Below the pieces are notes generated by a model. It was not told the DNA's origin. It worked only from the letters and a program-made list of their open reading frames with translations, and did no database searches. From assembly GCA_963830235.1 (NCBI GenBank), contig CAWHLR010000026.1:4792-68791 (forward strand): 64,000 nucleotides of DNA, given 5' to 3'. Source of the DNA: an uncultured Verrucomicrobiae bacterium (lineage in GTDB: Bacteria; Verrucomicrobiota; Verrucomicrobiia; Limisphaerales; UBA11358). Position 1 is the stretch's first letter. Every line of letters starts with the position of its first letter. Both the position numbers and the translations under genes were made by a program. Positions 3,217 through 63,013 of the stretch are shown here, piece after piece.

Positions 3217-5559
3217 GTGTGCAGCGCCTCGTCGCCATATCAGGTTGAATCGAATGCCGGGCACGGCCCCGGCGCCACGGAATTGCTCGTCGGCGGCATG
3301 AACTGCAACAATTGCGCGCGGCACGTCACCGAGGCGGTTCAGGGCGTGGCCGGAGTGCGCAGCGCCACGGTGTTGCTCGAAGCCGGCCGCGCATCGGTGC
3401 GCTGGAATTCCGGCGCGGAGCAAAACGTTCCCGCCGTCATCGAGGCCGTTCAGAAGGCCGGCTATACGGCAAAACAAATCCAGCCCGGCCCTTCCGCCGG
3501 TGGCGAATCCAGACACGCCGACTGGCAAATCAATCTCTGGCTCGGCATCACCGTTACTGCCGCGCTGATGGTTGGCGAATGGATTTTCCATCTCGCCATG
3601 AAACCGTGGTTTCAGTGGGTTGCCTTTGCGCTGGCCGGACTGGTGCAGGTCTTTGCCGGGGCAAAATTTTATCGCGGCGCATGGAACCAGCTCAAAATCG
3701 GCAACTCGAACATGGATACGCTCGTCGCGCTCGGTTCGACCACCGCGTTTGGCTACAGCGCGTGGGCTTTGCTGAGCGGTGTGGGCGGCCATCTCTATTT
3801 CATGGAAGCCGCCGCCATCATCACGCTCATCAGTTTCGGCCACTGGATCGAGGCTCGCGTGAGCATGCGCGCGTCGGGCGCGCTGGAAAATTTGCTGAAC
3901 CTCGCGCCGCAAACCGCGCGCCGGATTTCTCAATCCGAAATCCGAAATCCGAAATCCGAAATTGAAGTCCCTGTCGCCGAACTGAAAATCGGCGATCTGG
4001 TCGCGTTGCGCCCCGGCGACCGGGTGCCGGTGGATGGCACGGTGGCCGAAGGCGATTCCGCCGTGGACGAGGCGATGCTCACCGGCGAATCGGCGCCGGT
4101 GGACAAAAAAACCGGCGGCGAACTTTACGCCGGCACGGTGAATTTGAATGGCCAGCTCATCATGCGTGTGACCGCCACCGGCGAAAGCACTGCGCTGGCG
4201 CACATCATCGCCGCCGTGCAACGCGCCCAGACCAGCCGCGCCGATATCCAGCGCCTCGGCGACCGCGTGAGCAGCGTCTTCGTACCGGTCGTCGTCGCCA
4301 TCGCCGTCGCTGCTGCTTTGTGGTGGGGATTCATGCCGGAATCGGCGAAACACATTCACGACCTGCTCGCGCCGTTCCTCTGGCACGTCATGTCTCCGAC
4401 CGGCGCGGCGGCGGGTTTCATCATTGCTGCGGCGGTATTAATTGTGGCGTGTCCGTGCGCGATGGGTCTGGCGACGCCCGCCGCCATCATGGCCAGTGCC
4501 AACACCGCCGCGCGCCGCGGCATTCTGATTCGCGACGGTGTGGCGCTGGAGAAGGCCGGGAAAATCACTGCCGTAATTTTCGACAAGACCGGAACCCTCA
4601 CCCTTGGGAAGCCGGAAGTCGCAGTCATTGGAGCGCCGGTCTCCGACCCGGCGCGTTTCGAAACGATTGATCTTCGAGCCGGGTCGGAGACCGGCGTTCC
4701 AATCGCACAAATCGCCGCAGCGTTGGCGCGTTCCTCGAACCACCCCATCAGCCAGGCGATTGCCAAATTGTCTGCTCAGAACATTGACTTGAAAGACTGG
4801 CAGGAAATTCGCGGCTGTGGCGTTGAGGCCAACATTCAACATTCAACATTCAACATTCAACATCCAATGGGCAAAGCCCGGCTCGGTTCGCTCCGGTGGT
4901 TGAAGGAATCCGGCGTGGATTTGGCGGCAGGTGAAAAATTCATTGCCGAGTGGTCGCAACAGGGCGCAACGATTGTCGGGCTGGCGGTGGAGCAATCGCT
5001 CGCCGGGTTGTTCGCCGTCAAGGACACGGTGAAGCCCGGCGCACACACGGTGGTGGAACAATTGCACCGGCAGAATTTGAAGACGTTTTTGGTGACCGGC
5101 GACAACGCGTTGACCGCCGCCAGCATCGCCCGGCAGGCCGGCATCGCGGCGGAGAACGTCGCCGCCGAAGTGCGACCGGAACAAAAGGCGGAGTTTGTGA
5201 AAAAACTCCAGGCGCAAGGCGAGCGCGTGGCGTTCGTGGGCGACGGCATCAACGATGCGCCGGCGCTGGAGCAGGCCGATCTCGGCATCGCCGTGAGCCG
5301 CGCCAGCGACCTCGCGCGCGAGGCGGCGGACATCATTTTGTTGAAATCGGAAATCGAGGCCGTGCCGGAGGCGCTCGGCCTGGCGCGGGTGACGTTGCGG
5401 ACGATCAAACAGAATTTGTTCTGGGCGTTTTTTTACAACGCGCTGGGCGTGCCGCTGGCCGCGCTGGGTTTCATCAGCCCGATTTTATGCGCGGCAGCGA
5501 TGGGCGTGTCGGACTTGATTGTGATTGGCAATGCGCTGCGGCTTTTGCGGTGGCGCTGA
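3217..5559 (+). CDS. copA: copper/heavy-metal translocating P-type ATPase
   Basis: Contains the GMNCNNC metal-binding motif, TGES, CPC, DKTGT and GDGINDAP. Confidence 0.95.
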   Translation: MCSASSPYQVESNAGHGPGATELLVGGMNCNNCARHVTEAVQGVAGVRSATVLLEAGRASVRWNSGAEQNVPAVIEAVQKAGYTAKQIQPGPSAGGESRHADWQINLWLGITVTAALMVGEWIFHLAMKPWFQWVAFALAGLVQVFAGAKFYRGAWNQLKIGNSNMDTLVALGSTTAFGYSAWALLSGVGGHLYFMEAAAIITLISFGHWIEARVSMRASGALENLLNLAPQTARRISQSEIRNPKSEIEVPVAELKIGDLVALRPGDRVPVDGTVAEGDSAVDEAMLTGESAPVDKKTGGELYAGTVNLNGQLIMRVTATGESTALAHIIAAVQRAQTSRADIQRLGDRVSSVFVPVVVAIAVAAALWWGFMPESAKHIHDLLAPFLWHVMSPTGAAAGFIIAAAVLIVACPCAMGLATPAAIMASANTAARRGILIRDGVALEKAGKITAVIFDKTGTLTLGKPEVAVIGAPVSDPARFETIDLRAGSETGVPIAQIAAALARSSNHPISQAIAKLSAQNIDLKDWQEIRGCGVEANIQHSTFNIQHPMGKARLGSLRWLKESGVDLAAGEKFIAEWSQQGATIVGLAVEQSLAGLFAVKDTVKPGAHTVVEQLHRQNLKTFLVTGDNALTAASIARQAGIAAENVAAEVRPEQKAEFVKKLQAQGERVAFVGDGINDAPALEQADLGIAVSRASDLAREAADIILLKSEIEAVPEALGLARVTLRTIKQNLFWAFFYNALGVPLAALGFISPILCAAAMGVSDLIVIGNALRLLRWR
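3932..3963. repeat. heptanucleotide tandem array (AATCCGA x4) inside copA
   Basis: aatccgaaatccgaaatccgaaatccgaaatt, read in-frame as SEIRNPKSEI. A single complementary unit (cggatttc) sits just upstream. Confidence 0.9.
4634..4696. repeat. REPIN-like perfect inverted repeat inside copA (in-frame, 63 nt)
   Basis: cgccggtctccgacccggc (4634-4652) and its exact reverse complement gccgggtcggagaccggcg (4678-4696). Each arm holds a ggtc-tcc-gacc mini-hairpin. Confidence 0.9.
4831..4865. repeat. heptanucleotide tandem array (AACATTC x4 + AACATCC) inside copA
   Basis: aacattcaacattcaacattcaacattcaacatcc, read in-frame as NIQHSTFNIQHP. Confidence 0.9.
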
Positions 5560-26004: not shown

Positions 26005-26307
26005 TCAGTCGCCAAACAATTTTTTCAATTGTTCGCGGGCGGCGGCTTCGCGCCGGTTGTCTCCGGCTTTCGGCGTCCAGGCCCGGCGCGCAAATTCAAA
26101 ATACTCGCAGAAATTGCCCAGGTGCTTTTCCATCACCGGCTCGGCCCGCCGTTCGCGGCATTGCTGCGCCACGCGCGGATCGTAATGCGCGCAGTTCAGG
26201 CAGACGCGCAGGTCGGCCCGGCATTTGAAACAGCTTTCGCCGCGTCCGGGCTGGCCGGTCAGCGTCCATTCCTCGCCGCAGTTGTGGCAATGACGGGTCA
26301 AAGACAT
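26005..26307 (-). CDS. zinc-ribbon / Cys-rich small protein
   Basis: CHNCG...CFKC...CLNC...C...FC cysteine pattern in 100 aa. Confidence 0.6.
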   Translation of the reverse strand: MSLTRHCHNCGEEWTLTGQPGRGESCFKCRADLRVCLNCAHYDPRVAQQCRERRAEPVMEKHLGNFCEYFEFARRAWTPKAGDNRREAAAREQLKKLFGD

Positions 26308-26389
26308 TTACGATTTGTGATTTACGATTGACGATGTCACGACACAAAAGATTAACCTCGTAAATCGCCAATCGTAAATCGTAAATTAG
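26305..26389. repeat. heptamer-array hairpin, GATTTAC family
   Basis: catttacgatttgtgatttacgattgacg faces cgtaaatcgccaatcgtaaatcgtaaat. It lies in the divergent intergenic region. Confidence 0.85.
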
Positions 26390-35461: not shown

Positions 35462-35483
35462 TCGTCCCGCAGGGACAACCGAG

Positions 35484-35632
35484 AATAGCCCGCAGTTTCA
35501 ACTGCGGGTTTTGATGCCATAAAAATCACAAGCCCCGGAGGGGCGGATCGAATCTGCAACGATTTTGTCTGCCGCCCCTCCGGGGCTTGATTGATATTGG
35601 GCTGTTACCCGGCGTTGAAACGCCGGGCTATT
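35484..35632. repeat. three-hairpin structured element, copy 1
   Basis: agcccgcag-tttcaa-ctgcgggtt; agccccggaggggcgg...ccgcccctccggggct; tacccggcg-ttgaaa-cgccgggcta. Confidence 0.8.
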
Positions 35633-35658
35633 GTCGGTCGTCGCTCTGCGACTACAAT

Positions 35659-36669
35659 TCAACCCGCCGTCAGCCGGATGATTTCACGCAATGGCGTGCG
35701 CGGGCGGAACTTCACGCAGCGTTCCAGCTTTTTCACCAGCGGTTTGCGGCGGCGCATGTCGTCAAATTCCGGCGCACCGGTGACCCCGGAGCTTTTTGGC
35801 ACCGGCCCATAAGCTTTGGCATACGGCACGAGTTGAATCTTCGATTTTGAATCCAGCGTTTTCACCACGAGCCGGCCCAGTTTGAGGATGCTGACTTCCT
35901 CCGTGCCGCCCACATTGAAAATTTCGCCGCGCGCCTTCGGACAATTTTGCAGCCGCACCAGCGCCTCCACCGCGTCGCCGACGTGGCAGAAACACCGCGT
36001 TTGCGCGCCGTCGCCGAAAACTTTGAGCGGTTCGCCCTTTTTCGCCGCTGCGATGAACCGGGGCAGCACCATGCCGTAGCGGCCGGTCTGGCGCGGGCCG
36101 ACGGTGTTGAACAGCCGCGCGATGATGACCGGCAGCGACTTTTCCCGCGCATAAGCCAGCGCCAGAAATTCGTCGGTGAGCTTCGAGCACGCGTAGCTCC
36201 AGCGCGATTGTCCGGGCGGCCCAATGAGCAAATCATCATCCTCGCCGAACGCCGGCTTCGCGCTCTTGCCATAGACCTCCGAAGTTGAAGTCAACAGCAG
36301 CGGTGTGCGTCTGGTCGTGGCGGCCCGCAACAAGATTTGGGTCTCGTGAAAACTAGATTCCAAAACGCTCAACGCCGATTTCACCACCAGTTCAACGCCC
36401 ACCGTCGCTGCCAGATGAAAGATGAACTCCGCGTTCGCCGCCAGCTTCGGCAGTTCACGGCACGCGGATATTTTCGATTGAATCACGAGCAGCCGCCGAT
36501 GCGATTTGACCGCGCGCAAATTTTCCAGGCTGCCCGTGGAAAGATCGTCAATGACGACAACCGTTTTGCCATCGGCCAGCAATCGTTCGACGAGGTGCGA
36601 CCCGATGAAACCCGCGCCGCCGGTGACAAGGATGTGCGAGGATGAAGGATGGAGGATGGAGGATGGCAT
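35659..36669 (-). CDS. NAD-dependent sugar epimerase/dehydratase (SDR family)
   Basis: VTGGAGFIGSHL Rossmann motif and the YACSK catalytic motif. Confidence 0.85.
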   Translation of the reverse strand: MPSSILHPSSSHILVTGGAGFIGSHLVERLLADGKTVVVIDDLSTGSLENLRAVKSHRRLLVIQSKISACRELPKLAANAEFIFHLAATVGVELVVKSALSVLESSFHETQILLRAATTRRTPLLLTSTSEVYGKSAKPAFGEDDDLLIGPPGQSRWSYACSKLTDEFLALAYAREKSLPVIIARLFNTVGPRQTGRYGMVLPRFIAAAKKGEPLKVFGDGAQTRCFCHVGDAVEALVRLQNCPKARGEIFNVGGTEEVSILKLGRLVVKTLDSKSKIQLVPYAKAYGPVPKSSGVTGAPEFDDMRRRKPLVKKLERCVKFRPRTPLREIIRLTAG

Positions 36670-37830: not shown

Positions 37831-37902
37831 CATTTGCGATTTACGATTTGCGATTGACGCGTCCTCTGCCATTTACTCGTAAATCGTATATCGTGAATCG
37901 CC
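37831..37902. repeat. heptamer-array hairpin, GATTTAC family
   Basis: catttgcgatttacgatttgcgattgacg faces tttactcgtaaatcgtatatcgtgaatcgcc. Confidence 0.85.
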
Positions 37903-38525: not shown

Positions 38526-38538
38526 AATGCGAAAAAGG

Positions 38539-39066
<528 letters not shown>

Positions 39067-39073
<7 letters not shown>

Positions 39074-39965: not shown

Positions 39966-40070
39966 GGGGCAAAACATCGAACATCCAACATCGAACGCTG
40001 AACATCGAACGCTTGTTGAAAATGCCCCGATTCGATGTTGGGAGTTCGATGTTCGATGTTCAGCGTTTCC
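39966..40070. repeat. GAACATC-heptamer inverted pair without cargo
   Basis: ggggcaaaacatcgaacatccaacatcgaacgctgaacatcgaacgc ... gccccgattcgatgttgggagttcgatgttcgatgttcagcgtttcc. Confidence 0.8.
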
Positions 40071-44081: not shown

Positions 44082-44232
44082 AATAGCCCACGGTAAAACC
44101 GTGGGTTCAACGAACAAAATAAAACCAGCCCCGGCAGGGGCGGCAGAAAACATACGAACGGTTTTATCTGTCGCCCCTGCCGGGGCTTGTGATTTTTGTC
44201 CGACCAACCCACGGCTGACGCCGTGGGCTACT
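44082..44232. repeat. three-hairpin structured element, copy 2
   Basis: agcccacgg-taaaa-ccgtgggtt; agccccggcaggggcggcaga...tctgtcgcccctgccggggct; aacccacggc-tgac-gccgtgggcta. Confidence 0.8.
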
Positions 44233-44370
44233 TTCTGCCGCCTCCGGCGCTGAACGCGCAATTTGCCAAGCGGCAACTGACTTGGTTCCGCGCCCGGAAA
44301 ATCCAGAGTGGATTGAATTGAAGCCGGAGGAATCGCTGGAAAGATGTGCGCAGAAAATTTGTGAAACGAT

Positions 44371-44923: not shown

Positions 44924-45609
44924 TTAACTTTCCCTCGGTCGTTTGACGACGACGTCAATTTCCGCCTTGTTCTTGGCGATCATGTTCGCGGGCAGGATGC
45001 CGCGCCAGAAGACATTCGGGTAAACCACCGCGCCGCGCCCGAGGATGCTGCCGGGGTTCAGCACGGCGTTGCAGCCAACTTCCGCGCCGTCGCCGAGCAG
45101 CGCGCCGAACTTCCGCAGGCCGGTGTCGAATGGCACGCCGTCCACTTCCACCTCAATGTTGCCGGGGAACAGTTTGTAGTTGGAAATTTTCACCCCCGCG
45201 CCGAGATGCGCCTTGTGGCCGAGAATCGAGTCGCCCACGTAATTGAAATGCGGCACCTGCGCGTTGTTGAACAGCAGCGAGTTTTTCAGCTCGCTGGAAT
45301 TGCCGACAACGCAGCCGTCGCCGATGATGACGTTTTCGCGGATGTAGGCGTTGTGGCGAATCTGGCAGCCCGGCCGATGATGGCCGGGCCTTTGATCATG
45401 GCGCCGTCCTCGACGACCGTGTCCGGGCCGATGAAAACCTGTTCGCCGATGAAGGCCCGTCCCTCGCAGCGGTTGTGCAGGGCGGGTTTCAAATTGGCGG
45501 CGAGGTAGCTCTTGATTTTTTTGAGCGCGTCCCAGGCGAATTTGCCGCCGTCGAAAATGGCGGCGTGTTCGGTCTGGCCCAGGTCAAACAAGTCGGCTGG
45601 CGTGAACAT
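44924..45609 (-). CDS. left-handed beta-helix (hexapeptide-repeat) transferase; frame break near 45370
   Basis: ORF 45286-45609 ends junk-like after GPAIIG. The third frame continues PGCQIRHNAYIRENVIIGDGCVVGNSSELKNSLLFNNAQVPHFNYVGDS and joins ORF 44924-45256. Confidence 0.65.
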
Positions 45610-45657: not shown

Positions 45658-45695
45658 GGGAATTTAGTCATTAGGGTTTGGGAATTAGTCATTCC
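45658..45695. repeat. ATGACTA-family repeat units (TTAGTCATT x2)
   Basis: gggaatttagtcattagggtttgggaattagtcattcc. Confidence 0.7.
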
Positions 45696-45751
45696 GCAGG
45701 GCGGCATGGGCTTGCCATTCGTTGCGGCGGGGGTATTTTTGCGGCGGGCGC

Positions 45752-45827
45752 GCCCCCATAGCTCAAATGGATAGAGCAGCGGTTTCCTAAACCGTGGATT
45801 CCCGTTCAATTCGGGATGGGGGTACCA
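45752..45827 (+). tRNA. tRNA-Arg (CCU)
   Basis: 76-nt cloverleaf: acceptor GCCCCCA/TGGGGGT, anticodon loop TTCCTAA, T arm TCCCG-TTCAATT-CGGGA, encoded CCA. Confidence 0.85.
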
Positions 45828-49974: not shown

Positions 49975-50001
49975 AATTCGGAGGGGCGTCACGGTTCTTG
50001 A

Positions 50002-50033
50002 CACTCAACTTCCAACCCTCAACCCTCAACTCC
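50002..50033. repeat. CTCAACC-type heptamer array just upstream of the priA start
   Basis: cactcaacttccaaccctcaaccctcaactcc, preceded by TTGACA at 49998-50003. Confidence 0.6.
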
Positions 50034-50035
50034 GC

Positions 50036-53537: not shown

Positions 53538-54095
53538 TTACGCCATTTTAATTCCCCTTTGCCACAGATCGAAGTGATATAGCGCAACGACGACAAGGGG
53601 GTGGCTGATTTTTTCGTCAGCGACGAGTTTCGTCACTTCCGACACCGGCACGAGGCGCGTTGACAGATCCTCGCCGTGATCGAATTCCACGCCGTGCTTC
53701 AAGCGGCAGTTTTCAATCAGCACGGTGTAAGTTTTGTTGCTCAAGATGGCCGGGTTTGACCAGATCTGTCCAAGCAGGCGCGCGTTCCCGCCTTCGTAGC
53801 CGGTCTCCTCGCGCAACTCGCGCACGGCGGTCGCCACCGGGTCGGTCTCGCCCGGGTCCATCATGCCGCCGGGAATTTCGAGTTCCACTGTGTTCGAGCC
53901 GTGGCGGTATTGCTCCACCATCACCAGTTTTTGGTCGGGCGTCACGGCGACGACGTTGACCCAGTTGACGCTTTCAAGGACGTAAAAATCATGTTCCTTG
54001 CCGGTGCGCGGCGAGATTTTTACATCCGAGCGCAGCTTGAAGATGCGGAAATCGCCGACGAGCTTCGAACTGATTTGTTTCCAGGGCTTAACCAT
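53538..54095 (-). CDS. NUDIX hydrolase (ADP-ribose pyrophosphatase-like)
   Basis: Nudix box GGMMDPGETDPVATAVRELREETGY. Confidence 0.85.
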   Translation of the reverse strand: MVKPWKQISSKLVGDFRIFKLRSDVKISPRTGKEHDFYVLESVNWVNVVAVTPDQKLVMVEQYRHGSNTVELEIPGGMMDPGETDPVATAVRELREETGYEGGNARLLGQIWSNPAILSNKTYTVLIENCRLKHGVEFDHGEDLSTRLVPVSEVTKLVADEKISHPLVVVALYHFDLWQRGIKMA

Positions 54096-54166
54096 TTTCG
54101 ATTTATGATTTACGATTTACGCGTCCGGCGTATGGGTCGCGTCAATCGTAAATCTTAAATCGAAAA
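54096..54166. repeat. heptamer-array hairpin, GATTTAC family
   Basis: tttcgatttatgatttacgatttacgc faces gcgtcaatcgtaaatcttaaatcgaaaa. It abuts the NUDIX start codon. Confidence 0.85.
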
Positions 54167-54167
54167 T

Positions 54168-57901: not shown

Positions 57902-57964
57902 GAACGGAGCATAATCATTCCCGCCCCGAGTCCAAAGGCCAAAGTTGGCGCGACTTTGGACATC

Positions 57965-58028
57965 GGGCTTCGGACTTCGGACTTCGGACTTCATTCGGGC
58001 TTGAATCTTGAAACCTGAGGCTTGAAAC
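57965..58028. repeat. GGACTTC / CTTGAAA heptamer arrays in a divergent intergenic region
   Basis: gggcttcggacttcggacttcggacttcattcgggcttgaatcttgaaacctgaggcttgaaac. Confidence 0.8.
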
Positions 58029-61363: not shown

Positions 61364-62245
61364 ATGAAATCCATGACGGGCTACGGCCGGGGCGAGAGTG
61401 CGCGGGACGGCTTCAAAATCACCGTGGAACTCAGCGCGGTGAACCGACGGCAAACGGAAATTTCCGTGAACCTGCCGCGCGAACTGGAAATGCTTGAGGC
61501 GCCCATCCGCGACGCCATTAACGCCCGGGTCGCGCGCGGTCGCGTCACAGCGCGCATCACCCTCCACGCCGCCAATGGCAAGTCGGCGGCCCGCGCCCAC
61601 ATCAACCTCCCGCTCGCCAAAGCTTACGCGACGGAACTGGCGCGGCTGGCCAAGCAGTTGAAACTGTCCGGCGAAATATCGCTGGATCAAATCGTCCGCG
61701 CGCCGGGGGTTTTCCAGACGGATGAGGAGCTGGTGGACGCGGAAAACATCTGGCCGGTCGTCGAAAAGGCGTTGAAGCAGGCGCTGGCCGCGCTGGTAAA
61801 GATGCGCGAACGCGAAGGCGCACATCTGGCGCAGGACCTGGCCGCGCGCGTCAGTTTTATGCGCCAATGCGCCGGACGCGTCCAGAAACAGGCGCCCCAG
61901 ACGGCGGAGCGTTACTGCCAGCAACTCATCGAGCGCATCAAGAATGCCGGGCTGGAATCGCCCGCGCCGGATGACGAGCGGCTGTTGAAGGAAATCGTTT
62001 TGTTCGCCGACCGTTCGGATATTTCGGAGGAGCTGACGCGGCTGCAAAGCCATTTCCAGCAGTTTGAGGATTGCGGCAAGTCGAAGGAGCCGGTGGGCCG
62101 CACGCTGGATTTTCTCGCGCAGGAAATGAACCGCGAAATCAACACCATCGGCTCCAAGGCGAATGACGCGCTGATTGCGCGCGAGGTGGTGGCGCTGAAG
62201 GCGGAGTTGGAAAAATTCCGCGAACAGGCGCAGAATGTGGAATGA
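61364..62245 (+). CDS. yicC: YicC-family stress-induced protein
   Basis: MKSMTGYGRGE...VELSAVNRR... C-terminal DISEELTRLQSH...GRTLDFLAQEMNREINTIGSKAN. Confidence 0.9.
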   Translation: MKSMTGYGRGESARDGFKITVELSAVNRRQTEISVNLPRELEMLEAPIRDAINARVARGRVTARITLHAANGKSAARAHINLPLAKAYATELARLAKQLKLSGEISLDQIVRAPGVFQTDEELVDAENIWPVVEKALKQALAALVKMREREGAHLAQDLAARVSFMRQCAGRVQKQAPQTAERYCQQLIERIKNAGLESPAPDDERLLKEIVLFADRSDISEELTRLQSHFQQFEDCGKSKEPVGRTLDFLAQEMNREINTIGSKANDALIAREVVALKAELEKFREQAQNVE

Positions 62246-62389
62246 CACTTGGAATGACTAATGACTAAACCATAATGACTAAAGAATGCCCAATGACTAA
62301 TCCTGACAATTCCGCGACCAACGCCGGAGACGTTTTGTCATTCGAGCTTCGTCATTATTTAGTCATTAGGATTTAGCAATTAGTCATTT
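62241..62389. repeat. ATGACTA-family periodic repeat with inverted arms
   Basis: aatgacacttggaatgactaatgactaaaccataatgactaaagaatgcccaatgactaatcc ... gtcattcgagcttcgtcattatttagtcattaggatttagcaattagtcatt. Confidence 0.85.
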
Positions 62390-62395
62390 TTTACA

Positions 62396-63013
62396 ATGCC
62401 AGACGCCAGTCCATTGCTCATCCTGATCTCCGCCCCGTCCGGCGGCGGGAAGACGACGTTGTGCCAGCAGTTGCTCGCCGCGCGGCCGGACATGACGCGC
62501 GCCGTCACCTGCACGACGCGCGCGCCGCGGCCGGGCGAGAAAAACGGCGTGGATTATTATTTTCTGGACCCGGCGGATTTTCAACGGAGCGTGCAGGCGG
62601 GCGAATTCATCGAACACGCCACGGTTTTTGGCCGCGGTTACGGCCTTTTGCGCTCCGAGCTGCTGGACAAGTTGCGGCGCGGCCAGGATGTGCTGCTGAA
62701 CGTGGACGTGCAGGGCGCGGCGACAATTCGCGGCCGGGCGCTGGCGGATCCGGAATTGAAACACGCGCTGGTGACGGTGTTTTTGACTCCGCCGTCCATC
62801 ACCGTACTGGAAGCGCGGTTGAAAAAACGCGCGTCGGACGCGCCGGAAGAAATCCAAAAGCGGCTGGGCATCGCGCGGAAGGAAATCGCGCAGTGGGAAA
62901 ATTTCGATTACCTTTTGATCAGCACGAGCATCCCGGAGGATTTGCGGCGGATGCTGGCGATTGTTGAGGCGGAAAAGATGCGCGCCGCGCGGGCGCCGGC
63001 GCCGGAGTTTTAA
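62396..63013 (+). CDS. gmk: guanylate kinase
   Basis: ISAPSGGGKTTL P-loop, GVDYYF, and EHATVFGRGYG. Confidence 0.9.
   Translation: MPDASPLLILISAPSGGGKTTLCQQLLAARPDMTRAVTCTTRAPRPGEKNGVDYYFLDPADFQRSVQAGEFIEHATVFGRGYGLLRSELLDKLRRGQDVLLNVDVQGAATIRGRALADPELKHALVTVFLTPPSITVLEARLKKRASDAPEEIQKRLGIARKEIAQWENFDYLLISTSIPEDLRRMLAIVEAEKMRAARAPAPEF

Follow-up and report, generated by a model that had tools for sequence, protein, structure and literature searches.

The 64-kb stretch of DNA from an uncultured Verrucomicrobiae bacterium that is analyzed here (64,000 nucleotides, referred to as the window) carries the gene pair yicC-gmk, whose intergenic spacer is occupied by a long foldback with arms of degenerate heptanucleotide repeats. 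The upstream gene, yicC (positions 61364 to 62245, plus strand), encodes a YicC-like endoribonuclease (Pfam YicC-like_N, 1.9e-45; YicC-like_C, 2.3e-42), and gmk (62396 to 63013, plus strand) encodes a guanylate kinase (Pfam Guanylate_kin, 1.9e-32) that has its own ATG downstream of the foldback. The spacer between the yicC stop codon (TGA, 62243 to 62245) and the gmk ATG (62396) is 150 nt long. Relatives of YicC and Gmk place the window in Verrucomicrobia subdivision 3, among Limisphaerales/Pedosphaerales-like metagenome-assembled genomes from peat and soil. The relatives sampled comprise 160 orthologous yicC-gmk loci (L001 to L160; ∼1.9 to 2.0 Mb, mostly yicC neighborhoods) and, for a second site upstream of a tRNA-Arg gene, four relatives reached via the neighboring DUF6600 gene.

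The left arm (62234 to 62305, plus strand) is a decayed AATGACN array of ∼10 slots (AATGTGG, AATGACA, cttgg, AATGACT, AATGACT, AAACCAT, AATGACT, aaag, AATGCCC, AATGACT, and AATCCTG), with phase shifts of 5 and 4 nt. It is followed by a nonrepetitive, more G+C-rich loop of 28 nt (62306 to 62333), aperiodic in autocorrelation, and by the right arm (62334 to 62393, plus strand), a complementary NGTCATT array of 8 slots (TTTGTCA, TTCGAGC, TTCGTCA, a 4-nt shift [ttat], TTAGTCA, TTAGGAT, TTAGCAA, TTAGTCA, and TTTTTTA). The original prediction of a periodic repeat with inverted arms, in which five left units face four right ones, is confirmed: the AATGAC core is intact five times in the left arm (62241, 62253, 62260, 62274, and 62292) and GTCATT four times in the right arm (62337, 62351, 62362, and 62383). 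As also proposed, the array begins in the yicC stop region, since the final yicC codons and the TGA form the first heptamer slots (AATGTGG and AATGACA) and the first unit, GAATGAC (62240 to 62246), holds the stop codon. At the other end, the right arm finishes 2 nt before the gmk ATG and the folded stem (ending at 62390) 5 nt before it. The spacings between intact cores (12, 7, 14, and 18 in the left arm and 14, 11, and 21 in the right arm) are irregular because of decayed units and the 4- to 5-nt phase shifts. Exact AATGACTA has eight occurrences in the window, all at two places: the spacer (62253, 62260, 62274, and 62292 on the plus strand and 62360 and 62381 on the minus strand) and a site upstream of tRNA-Arg (45665 and 45686, minus strand).

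Autocorrelation, with significance taken from 500 dinucleotide shuffles, gave a sole strong peak at lag 7 (z of 3.8 for the left arm, 4.1 for the right arm, and 6.0 overall; 0/500 shuffles), secondary peaks at lags 14 (z of 3.9 in the right arm) and 21, and no signal at lag 9. Of the two periods that had been suggested for the array, 7 therefore stands and 9 does not, and the unit is a degenerate heptamer rather than a 9-mer. Tandem Repeats Finder called period 7 at 62253 to 62268 and period 14 at 62357 to 62383; both arms are thus head-to-tail heptanucleotide arrays, albeit degenerate and with phase shifts. Over 41 nt (62253 to 62293 versus 62348 to 62388), the arms are 83% complementary, and RNA from 62251 to 62390 is predicted to form a long imperfect hairpin with a minimum free energy of −48.5 kcal/mol, compared with −28.1 ± 3.8 kcal/mol for 200 shuffles of the spacer, none of which was as stable (z of −5.4). 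The antisense strand folds equally well (−54.4 kcal/mol; z of −5.6), and orthologous spacers gave z values of −3.4 (L002) and −3.9 (L016). None of the curated Rfam models matched the spacer at the gathering score, and a permissive threshold returned chance-level hits only (E of 0.19 to 2.3).

The yicC-gmk pair is conserved, and its intergenic distance is 0 to 30 nt in deep relatives. In nearly all relatives, yicC ends in GTGGAATGA or GTCGAATGA; the spacer is in frame with an ATG, GTG, or TTG that overlaps the yicC stop codon at 99 of 148 loci, and at 74 of the 148 this frame is open into gmk. These in-frame and open spacers and the short distances in deep relatives show that in the ancestral arrangement yicC and gmk overlapped at GGAATGA, with ATGA as a combined stop and start. 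In the window, the overlapping open reading frame (ORF) shuts after 8 codons (ATG ACA CTT GGA ATG ACT AAT GAC TAA). In this lineage, the sequences indicate that the hairpin separates yicC from gmk, that units containing TAA or TGA close the old frame, and that gmk uses a new ATG. In most relatives, the yicC-gmk “spacer” is in frame and appears to be translated as an N-terminal extension of Gmk, a feature that the original prediction did not include. In roughly half of the relatives, the first gmk codon is an ATG or GTG overlapping the yicC stop codon (ATGA or GTGA), and the first 10 to 20 gmk codons in those relatives are heptamer arrays, e.g., (AAGTCCA)n, which reads KSKVQSP and gives Gmk a variable low-complexity tail.

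The stop-free extension arrays found in relatives are (AAGTCCA)n, (AGCCAGA)n, and (AGTCGAG)n, and across species the units in the orthologous spacer include AATGACN, GAATGAA, AATCCGA, AGCTCCA, GTGACAA with AGTCGAG, AAGTCCA, and AGCCAGA. Such different units at one orthologous spacer fit a shared generating process. Units of the AATGA type (GAATGAA, GAATGAC, and GAATGGC) appear to have been amplified from the GGAATGA junction of the ancestral arrangement.

The whole AATGAC element can be aligned at the same position in nine other loci (L084, L091, L081, L082, L083, L002, L087, L016, and L122), and parts of it are retained in L105 and L159. The hairpin has therefore been inherited at the yicC-gmk site in at least 10 genomes. 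The copies differ by deletions of 14 and 12 nt in the left arm and by a 7-nt insertion in the right arm of L016, sizes expected from slippage of whole units; the right arm is otherwise free of gaps in the 10-genome alignment used for identity. Mean pairwise identity among the 10 copies was 0.79 for the left arm, 0.83 for the right arm, and 0.455 for the loop, with 4-fold-degenerate sites of the flanking genes at 0.68 to 0.69. The right arm is the most conserved part: it exceeded the 4-fold benchmark in 9/9 comparisons, the left arm was roughly at the benchmark, and only the gmk-proximal arm is conserved beyond synonymous sites. Its identity to the window reached 0.98 in both L084 and L091 (4-fold sites, 0.82 and 0.755, respectively). 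Between L091 and the window, 54/55 right-arm positions agree where synonymous sites are 75 to 76% identical and the loop, at 0.27, has been replaced outright. The AATGAC array is thus not hypervariable, being conserved across species whose synonymous sites are 57 to 82% identical. No strain-level relatives that could reveal array length polymorphism were found (best protein identities, 89 to 92%; best metagenome match, 92%). Spacer types were intermixed in a neighbor-joining tree of YicC and Gmk, which is too weak to be used for the question of a single origin.

The second site carries a half copy of the element, the outer right-arm module ATTTAGTCATTAGGGTTTGGGAATTAGTCATT (45661 to 45694, plus strand), flanked by GGCATGG direct repeats. 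Two TTAGTCATT units upstream of tRNA-Arg had been reported in the original prediction and are present (45664 to 45672 and 45685 to 45693, with the 21-bp spacing kept), and the match is larger than these two units: 45662 to 45693 is identical to 62357 to 62388 at 29/32 positions and resembles the reverse-complemented left arm just as closely. Outside the element lie a promoter-like TTGCCA-N16-TATTTT (45712 to 45739) and tRNA-Arg(CCT) (45752 to 45827, plus strand; ARAGORN and Rfam). The hexamer pair stands 12 nt 5′ of tRNA-Arg(CCT) and is invariant in the four relatives; it is probably the tRNA-Arg promoter.

Comparison of this site between relatives, framed by the invariant flanks GCGAAATGG and GGCTTGCCATTCG, shows an empty, a full, and a half-deleted state. 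In L166 the site is empty, with only CACGG between the flanks. In L167 it holds a full hairpin of 148 nt, whose left arm, AATGACCAATTCCGAAACCATAATGACGAAAGAA, matches the left arm at yicC-gmk in L087 with 88% identity, whose right arm terminates in TTAGTCATTCC, and whose nonperiodic parts are colinear with the yicC-gmk element. The window has the right half only, and L161 (the genome of L002) has an unrelated G+C-rich insert. Since the shared nonperiodic stretch excludes independent slippage, the AATGAC element has been copied at least once. Direct repeats flank the tRNA-Arg copy (GGCAYGG[G]) and also the L016 hairpin (GGAATGA…GGAATGA). Further AATGAC/GTCATT clusters, and diverged copies by blastn, were sought in the ∼1.9 to 2.0 Mb, almost all of it yicC neighborhood; apart from the orthologous spacers and the copies at tRNA-Arg, this yielded a single AATGACA hairpin, in L047, that is unrelated. 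With three different fills and one empty site, the stretch just 5′ of the tRNA-Arg −35 hexamer is an insertion hot spot.

The yicC-gmk foldback belongs to a class. In a census by Tandem Repeats Finder of the window and the 160 loci (high-scoring arrays defined by a score of ≥50, with a Markov control), period 7 (n = 73), period 14 (n = 35), and period 21 (n = 15) dominated the high-scoring repeats in the relatives' ∼1.9 Mb, and periods 5, 8, 10, and 11 were represented by only 0 to 2 arrays each; such arrays are not unique to the locus. Array density was 2 to 5 per 10 kb in the clade of the window and approximately zero in deep relatives. Among 78 neighboring array pairs, 52 were inverted-complementary and 1 was direct. 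Arms have ∼4 units (28 nt) each, with a mean difference between arms of 1.1 units and loops of 11 to 88 nt. The suggestion that arms covary in unit number found no support (r = −0.01), both arms simply having ∼4 units. An approximate gene caller put 42 hairpins between two called genes, 36 of them flanked by genes on the same strand and four by divergent genes; most start ≤∼20 nt after the upstream stop codon and end ≤25 nt before the next start codon.

The same organization, as originally proposed, recurs in the window with ATTTACG and AACATCG units. An (ATTTACG)4/(CGTAAAT)4 hairpin lies at the start of a NUDIX gene (54094 to 54167) and is orthologous in L166, L007, L008, L111, and L015, with conserved arms and an unalignable loop. 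Two more hairpins of the ATTTACG family (26306 to 26386 and 37832 to 37900) lie between divergent genes and abut start codons; their neighbors are unrelated genes (for cstA, an amidase, and a UbiX-like flavoprotein). An ORF-less AACATCG/CGATGTT hairpin follows ubiA (39973 to 40061, plus strand) and shares the variant unit AACGCTG with a cassette 900 nt upstream (see below). Units recur at unrelated loci and in unrelated genomes with the same 4+4 architecture and inner variants (ATTGACG/CGTCAAT and AACGCTG).

Foldbacks also turn over rapidly. No two of four close relatives have the same fill in the DUF374-priA spacer (window, 49975 to 50035; L161, 6700 to 6822; L163, 7220 to 7358; L166, 13885 to 13997), and the four fills include hairpins with 9- to 10-nt periods. 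The L161 hairpin there has 9-nt repeat arms (CGAAATACA), and L168 and L174 have a similar AACCACGAAATACA hairpin after ubiA; the foldbacks of the clade are not all heptameric. A YacP-like NYN gene has an orthologous AAGTCCA/GACTTTG hairpin at its start (window, 57930 to 57992; L108, 6645 to 7344; L006, 7275 to 7364; L002, 6763 to 6826), and in L108 the loop of this hairpin contains a 610-nt AT-rich insert flanked by the 8-bp direct repeat GCGGTTGG, apparently the result of insertion into the loop.

The cassette mentioned above was likewise absent from the original prediction. Between the ubiX-like and ubiA genes (38527 to 39071, plus strand), inverted arrays of AACATCG (38541 to 38575) and CGATGTT (39035 to 39071) bracket a gene for a four-helix-bundle 23S_rRNA_IVP protein (PF05635, 5.7e-11; TIGR02436, 1.4e-21), i.e., the protein family encoded in intervening sequences (IVS) of 23S rRNA. 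This ORF had been considered as a small HUH/Y1 transposase, which was ruled out by its identity as a 23S_rRNA_IVP four-helix bundle. Its close homologues have 167 aa and start with MRKGKHRTSNIEHRTLNE, and the 5′ array is translated as KHRTSNIEHRTLNE; since HRTSNIE is (CGAACAT)3 read through three frames, this array is coding. The gene in the window carries one extra A at 38532 to 38536 (A5 versus A4), a 1-nt frameshift that is either real or an assembly error. Synteny of the cassette with the ubiX-like gene and ubiA is kept in all relatives examined, including L168 and L176, and the two arms of L168 show a joint change, to CAACATT/GAATGTT. In a diverse set of 150 IVP-family proteins, many have tandem N-terminal tails of RTSNIEH, RTSNVER, PTSNIQH, or NPKSEIK; as these correspond to heptanucleotide arrays in three frames, such arrays are a general 5′ feature of IVP genes. 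A tblastn search of the fetched loci detected no other IVP genes, the only ORFs found to be bracketed by inverted arrays were those of orthologous IVP cassettes, and the 610-nt loop insert of L108 has neither a fully contained ORF of ≥70 aa nor similarity to the IVP protein of the window.

Coding arrays are also found elsewhere in the window. An ORF of 780 aa for a heavy-metal P-type ATPase (HMA, E1-E2, and HAD) contains in-frame (AATCCGA)4.4 (3932 to 3962) and (CAACATT)5.4 (4830 to 4867), which encode SQSEIRNPKSEIE and NIQHSTFNIQHP, and stop-free arrays are therefore tolerated as peptide insertions in an enzyme. On the minus strand, an NAD-dependent epimerase gene begins with (CATCCTC)4 (36638 to 36666), whose codons (MPSSILHPSSSH) directly precede those of the GGAGFIG motif. 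Also on the minus strand (44924 to 45609), two ORFs of 110 and 107 aa together represent a hexapeptide-repeat transferase that L161 and L167 encode in a single 228-aa gene, the alignment of the window with L161 showing a length difference of one base; this split and the IVP frameshift, taken together, suggest that the source assembly contains indel errors. The Rfam Acido-Lenti-1 RNA motif was detected three times above the gathering score (37.7 to 49.9 bits), at 35463 to 35508 (minus strand), 35608 to 35653 (plus strand), and 44208 to 44251 (plus strand).

We postulate that an old foldback of ∼150 nt, belonging to the inverted-heptamer class, replaced the ATGA coupling of yicC and gmk; that it was vertically inherited and copied once to the promoter region of tRNA-Arg; and that it is decaying except in its gmk-proximal arm, with 7-nt slippage and with AATGA units derived from the GGAATGA junction. 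The chances that this account is correct as a whole are about even. Arrays would grow and shrink by 7-nt replication slippage, as the 7- and 14-nt indels of relatives suggest, and a duplicated GGAATGA junction would have been the seed of the AATGA-type units. The second arm could have arisen by inverted duplication or a template switch, or the whole hairpin may have arrived as an IVS-like insertion. The element would be cotranscribed with yicC and gmk and would fold into an interrupted double-stranded RNA stem of ∼55 bp, which, by analogy with IVS excision and with Haemophilus hmw, would be a natural substrate of RNase III, so that cleavage would split the two cistrons. The gmk-proximal arm would probably act as an AU-rich leader or expression signal of gmk in a host that does not use Shine-Dalgarno sites. 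Shine-Dalgarno-like motifs precede 4 to 10% of predicted starts in the window and close relatives, compared with 9% of random 17-mers, and with no enrichment this lineage appears to initiate translation without such sites. For the same reason, an argument for translational coupling from the missing Shine-Dalgarno motif at gmk was dropped.

Several observations weigh against this account. Across 10 orthologues and 30 consensus pairs, there were 3 double changes and the covariation term was positive (unfavorable); on 3 as on 10 orthologues, the pairs were mostly invariant and the test uninformative. Cross-species arm chimeras folded like native hairpins (−44.6 versus −44.9 kcal/mol; permutation P = 0.43), and the stability of orthologous hairpins spanned −27.7 to −68.8 kcal/mol. 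For 37 hairpins between same-strand genes, sense versus antisense folding, used to seek a G·U signature of RNA-level selection, was negative, the sense RNA being more stable in 17 cases and less stable in 20 (P = 0.42). The L167 copy folds no better than shuffles. Mobility is represented by a single second site, AATGAC clusters occurring almost only at yicC-gmk in the relatives' DNA (∼1.9 Mb, mostly yicC neighborhoods), and direct repeats flanking 51 class hairpins were no longer than mismatched controls (3.9 versus 4.1 nt); classical cut-and-paste transposition with target duplication is therefore not established. Alignment of repeats can inflate the identity of the arms, the asymmetry between arms and loop being nonetheless robust. 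The yicC-gmk element has no IVP gene (its 28-nt loop has no ORF) and is not in rRNA, the window containing none. RNase III cleavage, cotranscription, and a leader function for gmk are parts of the account that we infer. Given no covariation, no arm coevolution, and no strand bias, the palindromy looks like a slowly decaying legacy at the DNA level rather than an RNA helix maintained by selection; what is maintained is the gmk-proximal arm.

The original prediction had favored a common generating mechanism over a common ancestor sequence. The lineage-wide class with its unrelated units agrees with the first part; the second does not hold for the two TTAGTCATT loci, which share an ancestor (a whole hairpin in L167 and an empty site in L166). 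In its strict form, this view takes each array to be a purely local microsatellite, generated per locus by slippage with a 7-nt polymerase-footprint bias and a template-switched arm, never mobile, without a link to IVS, and without function. It is consistent with orthologous spacers whose units differ by species, the four DUF374-priA fills in close relatives, the identity of GAATGAA and GAATGAC units to the local GGAATGA(A) junction, indels in multiples of 7, the lack of class-wide target-site duplication, RNA strand bias, or covariation, and the attribution of heptameric repeat excess elsewhere to polymerase slippage (PMC4692102). Slippage cannot, however, yield a tRNA-Arg copy that is colinear even in the nonperiodic AAACCATAATGACNAAAGAA next to an empty site in L166. 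Nor does it accommodate units that recur at unrelated loci and genomes with the 4+4 architecture and inner variants, a unit number that, unlike that of ordinary microsatellites, is stable over long divergence, or a right arm conserved beyond synonymous sites, and we consider it unlikely. Another explanation is a transposase-driven miniature inverted-repeat transposable element, with GGAATGAC/GTCATTCC terminal inverted repeats, heptamers as subterminal repeats, and a DDE transposase acting in trans, that would have been inserted at the yicC/gmk junction with 7- to 8-bp target duplications. Terminal inverted repeats are present (GGAATGAC … GTCATT[CC] at both loci), the tRNA-Arg site is polymorphic for presence with its GGCAYGG(G) repeats, the L016 hairpin sits between direct GGAATGA copies, and a different element with an 8-bp duplication (GCGGTTGG) occupies the L108 loop. 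The duplication at yicC-gmk could equally be a tandem copy of the junction, however, and flanking repeats of the 51 hairpins do not exceed controls. With only two insertion sites known for the AATGAC family, no transposase among the few window proteins scanned, and dozens of unrelated units that would require as many transposase specificities, this explanation is distinctly improbable.

Conservation of the right arm (98% identical where synonymous sites are ∼75% identical) would be expected if GTCATT repeats, 11 and 21 bp apart on one helix face, were operator, activator, or UP-like sites for a DNA-binding protein controlling gmk and tRNA-Arg. The half copy lies immediately 5′ of the −35 hexamer of a conserved tRNA promoter and keeps the 21-bp spacing of its two TTAGTCATT units. 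That promoter is nevertheless intact without the module in L166 and L161, no sigma-70-like promoter follows the module at gmk, and genes flanking other families have no common function; many unit sequences would require many regulators, and no candidate binding protein was identified. A protein-binding array is accordingly quite doubtful. Least probable is an intrinsic terminator or attenuator of yicC transcripts, for which the strong hairpin, the TTTTTT that follows (T-run, 62387 to 62392), and the location of most class members downstream of a same-strand gene could be cited. A terminator scan made no call, the stem (∼140 nt, with bulges) has an AU-rich base, the T-run is not conserved (ATTATTTCC in L002 and TTTTCAAG in L122), and class members also lie between divergent genes, abutting starts (26306 to 26386 and 37832 to 37900). 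Termination would in addition leave gmk without a recognizable promoter: a promoter scan of the spacer found only a weak TTGGAA-N16-CATAAT in the left arm, not conserved in all orthologues.

In the account that we prefer, the class has the architecture of 23S rRNA IVS, with a heptamer stem of ∼4 × 7 bp and a loop that is short or holds an IVP gene, and the yicC-gmk element has, as IVS do, terminal inverted repeats and a long stem around a variable loop. This inherited and once-copied foldback may be part of something wider. Limisphaerales-type Verrucomicrobia might carry undescribed IVS-like foldbacks with inverted heptanucleotide stems, some with an S23p/23S_rRNA_IVP gene and most, the yicC-gmk hairpin among them, ORF-less derivatives, the arrays serving as cis sites of a copy mechanism and perhaps bound by the pentameric IVP protein; the places where such foldbacks settle would be operon stop/start junctions, divergent promoter regions, and, in frame, the inside of genes. 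This extension is tentative and, at present, rather improbable. If it were true, the IVS of rRNA would represent only the conspicuous part of a far larger family of mobile hairpins.

Why heptamers are overrepresented in some bacteria and what purpose rRNA IVS and the S23p/IVP proteins serve are old open questions. This locus and its relatives join both, as inverted heptamers occur here with and without an IVP gene, outside rRNA, at stop/start junctions, and with datable gains and losses and one copy event. They also provide a case in which a repeat would have prised apart a tightly coupled gene pair (the ATGA overlap), and stop-free arrays appear to be read in three frames as peptide tails or insertions of Gmk, a P-type ATPase, and an IVP protein. 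Arrays of this kind probably break short-read assemblies and mislead gene callers in an abundant soil and peat lineage. The ingredients are known (heptameric simple sequence repeats, IVS stems with heptamers, and palindromic intergenic repeats). In the literature searched, we found no description of paired inverted arrays as abundant in Verrucomicrobia, of their stop-to-start placement, or of their in-frame presence in genes, nor of a general association of IVP genes with heptanucleotide arrays outside rRNA.

The ERIC/IRU and REP/BIME elements of proteobacteria and the palindromic elements of Rickettsia are imperfect palindromes in transcribed operon spacers that show presence/absence polymorphism between strains and may affect mRNA processing; those of Rickettsia are able to insert in frame within genes. 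These families have one conserved consensus per genome and no internal tandem periodicity, unlike the yicC-gmk element. REP palindromes, 20 to 40 nt long and rich in G+C, have conserved GTAG/CGTC heads, occur in doublets, and are accompanied by a RAYT transposase, whereas the yicC-gmk arms are AT-rich heptamer arrays of ∼60 nt without a GTAG/CGTC head. REPINs (PMC3116915) were among the palindromic families compared; the yicC-gmk element does not have the features of a REP or REPIN, no genome-wide search for RAYT having been made. A heptad repeat can also be a protein target, as for omega of pSM19035, a ribbon-helix-helix repressor that binds heptad operators cooperatively. Eukaryotic Foldback transposons (PMC4079207) consist of long inverted repeats of short tandem repeats around a variable and perhaps coding middle. 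They are kilobase-sized and transposase-associated, and the likeness is architectural only, with no homology implied.

Closer in arrangement is the 5′ untranslated region of Haemophilus influenzae hmw1A, in which an (ATCTTTC)n heptamer array forms a long hairpin that is cut by RNase III (PMC12721329). Both systems place a heptamer hairpin arm just 5′ of a start codon, and the hmw1A hairpin is transcribed, processed by RNase III, and modulates expression (PMC12721329). In hmw1A, however, one arm is repetitive and hypervariable in number, leading to phase variation, while at yicC-gmk both arms are arrays, the unit number is stable, and the downstream gene encodes a housekeeping kinase. Xanthomonas and Nostoc are known to have an excess of heptameric repeats with occasional inverted pairs, for which the polymerase footprint has been put forward as a tentative cause (PMC4692102). 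The cyanobacterial STRR, Xanthomonas GGGAATC, and Nostoc GGGGAYT repeats resemble the present class in being lineage-specific intergenic heptamers with several families per genome, some inverted stem-loop pairs, and positions shared by related species despite variation in length and sequence (PMC4692102). Those repeats, studied as quadruplex formers, are for the most part single and G-rich arrays; in the present class, in contrast, inverted pairs dominate among neighboring arrays (52/78 pairs), stop-to-start spacers are occupied, arrays occur in frame, and one family brackets an IVP gene.

The nearest parallel is with IVS. That of Coxiella burnetii contains an S23p ORF and a 28-bp terminal stem with GACAGAT heptamers (2 to 3 copies, depending on the strain) and is cut in the stem by RNase III, and IVS are regarded as selfish, possibly transposed elements that are excised by this enzyme (PMC4990558). 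The IVS of Coxiella, Leptospira, and Salmonella share with the class described here terminal inverted repeats that form a stem of ∼28 bp around a variable loop, which may hold an S23p gene; in Coxiella, the 5′ part of the stem is made of tandem heptamers. The stem of the yicC-gmk element is longer (∼55 bp, with bulges) and decayed and encloses no ORF, and while IVS interrupt helix 25 or 45 of 23S rRNA, the yicC-gmk element lies between two protein-coding genes.

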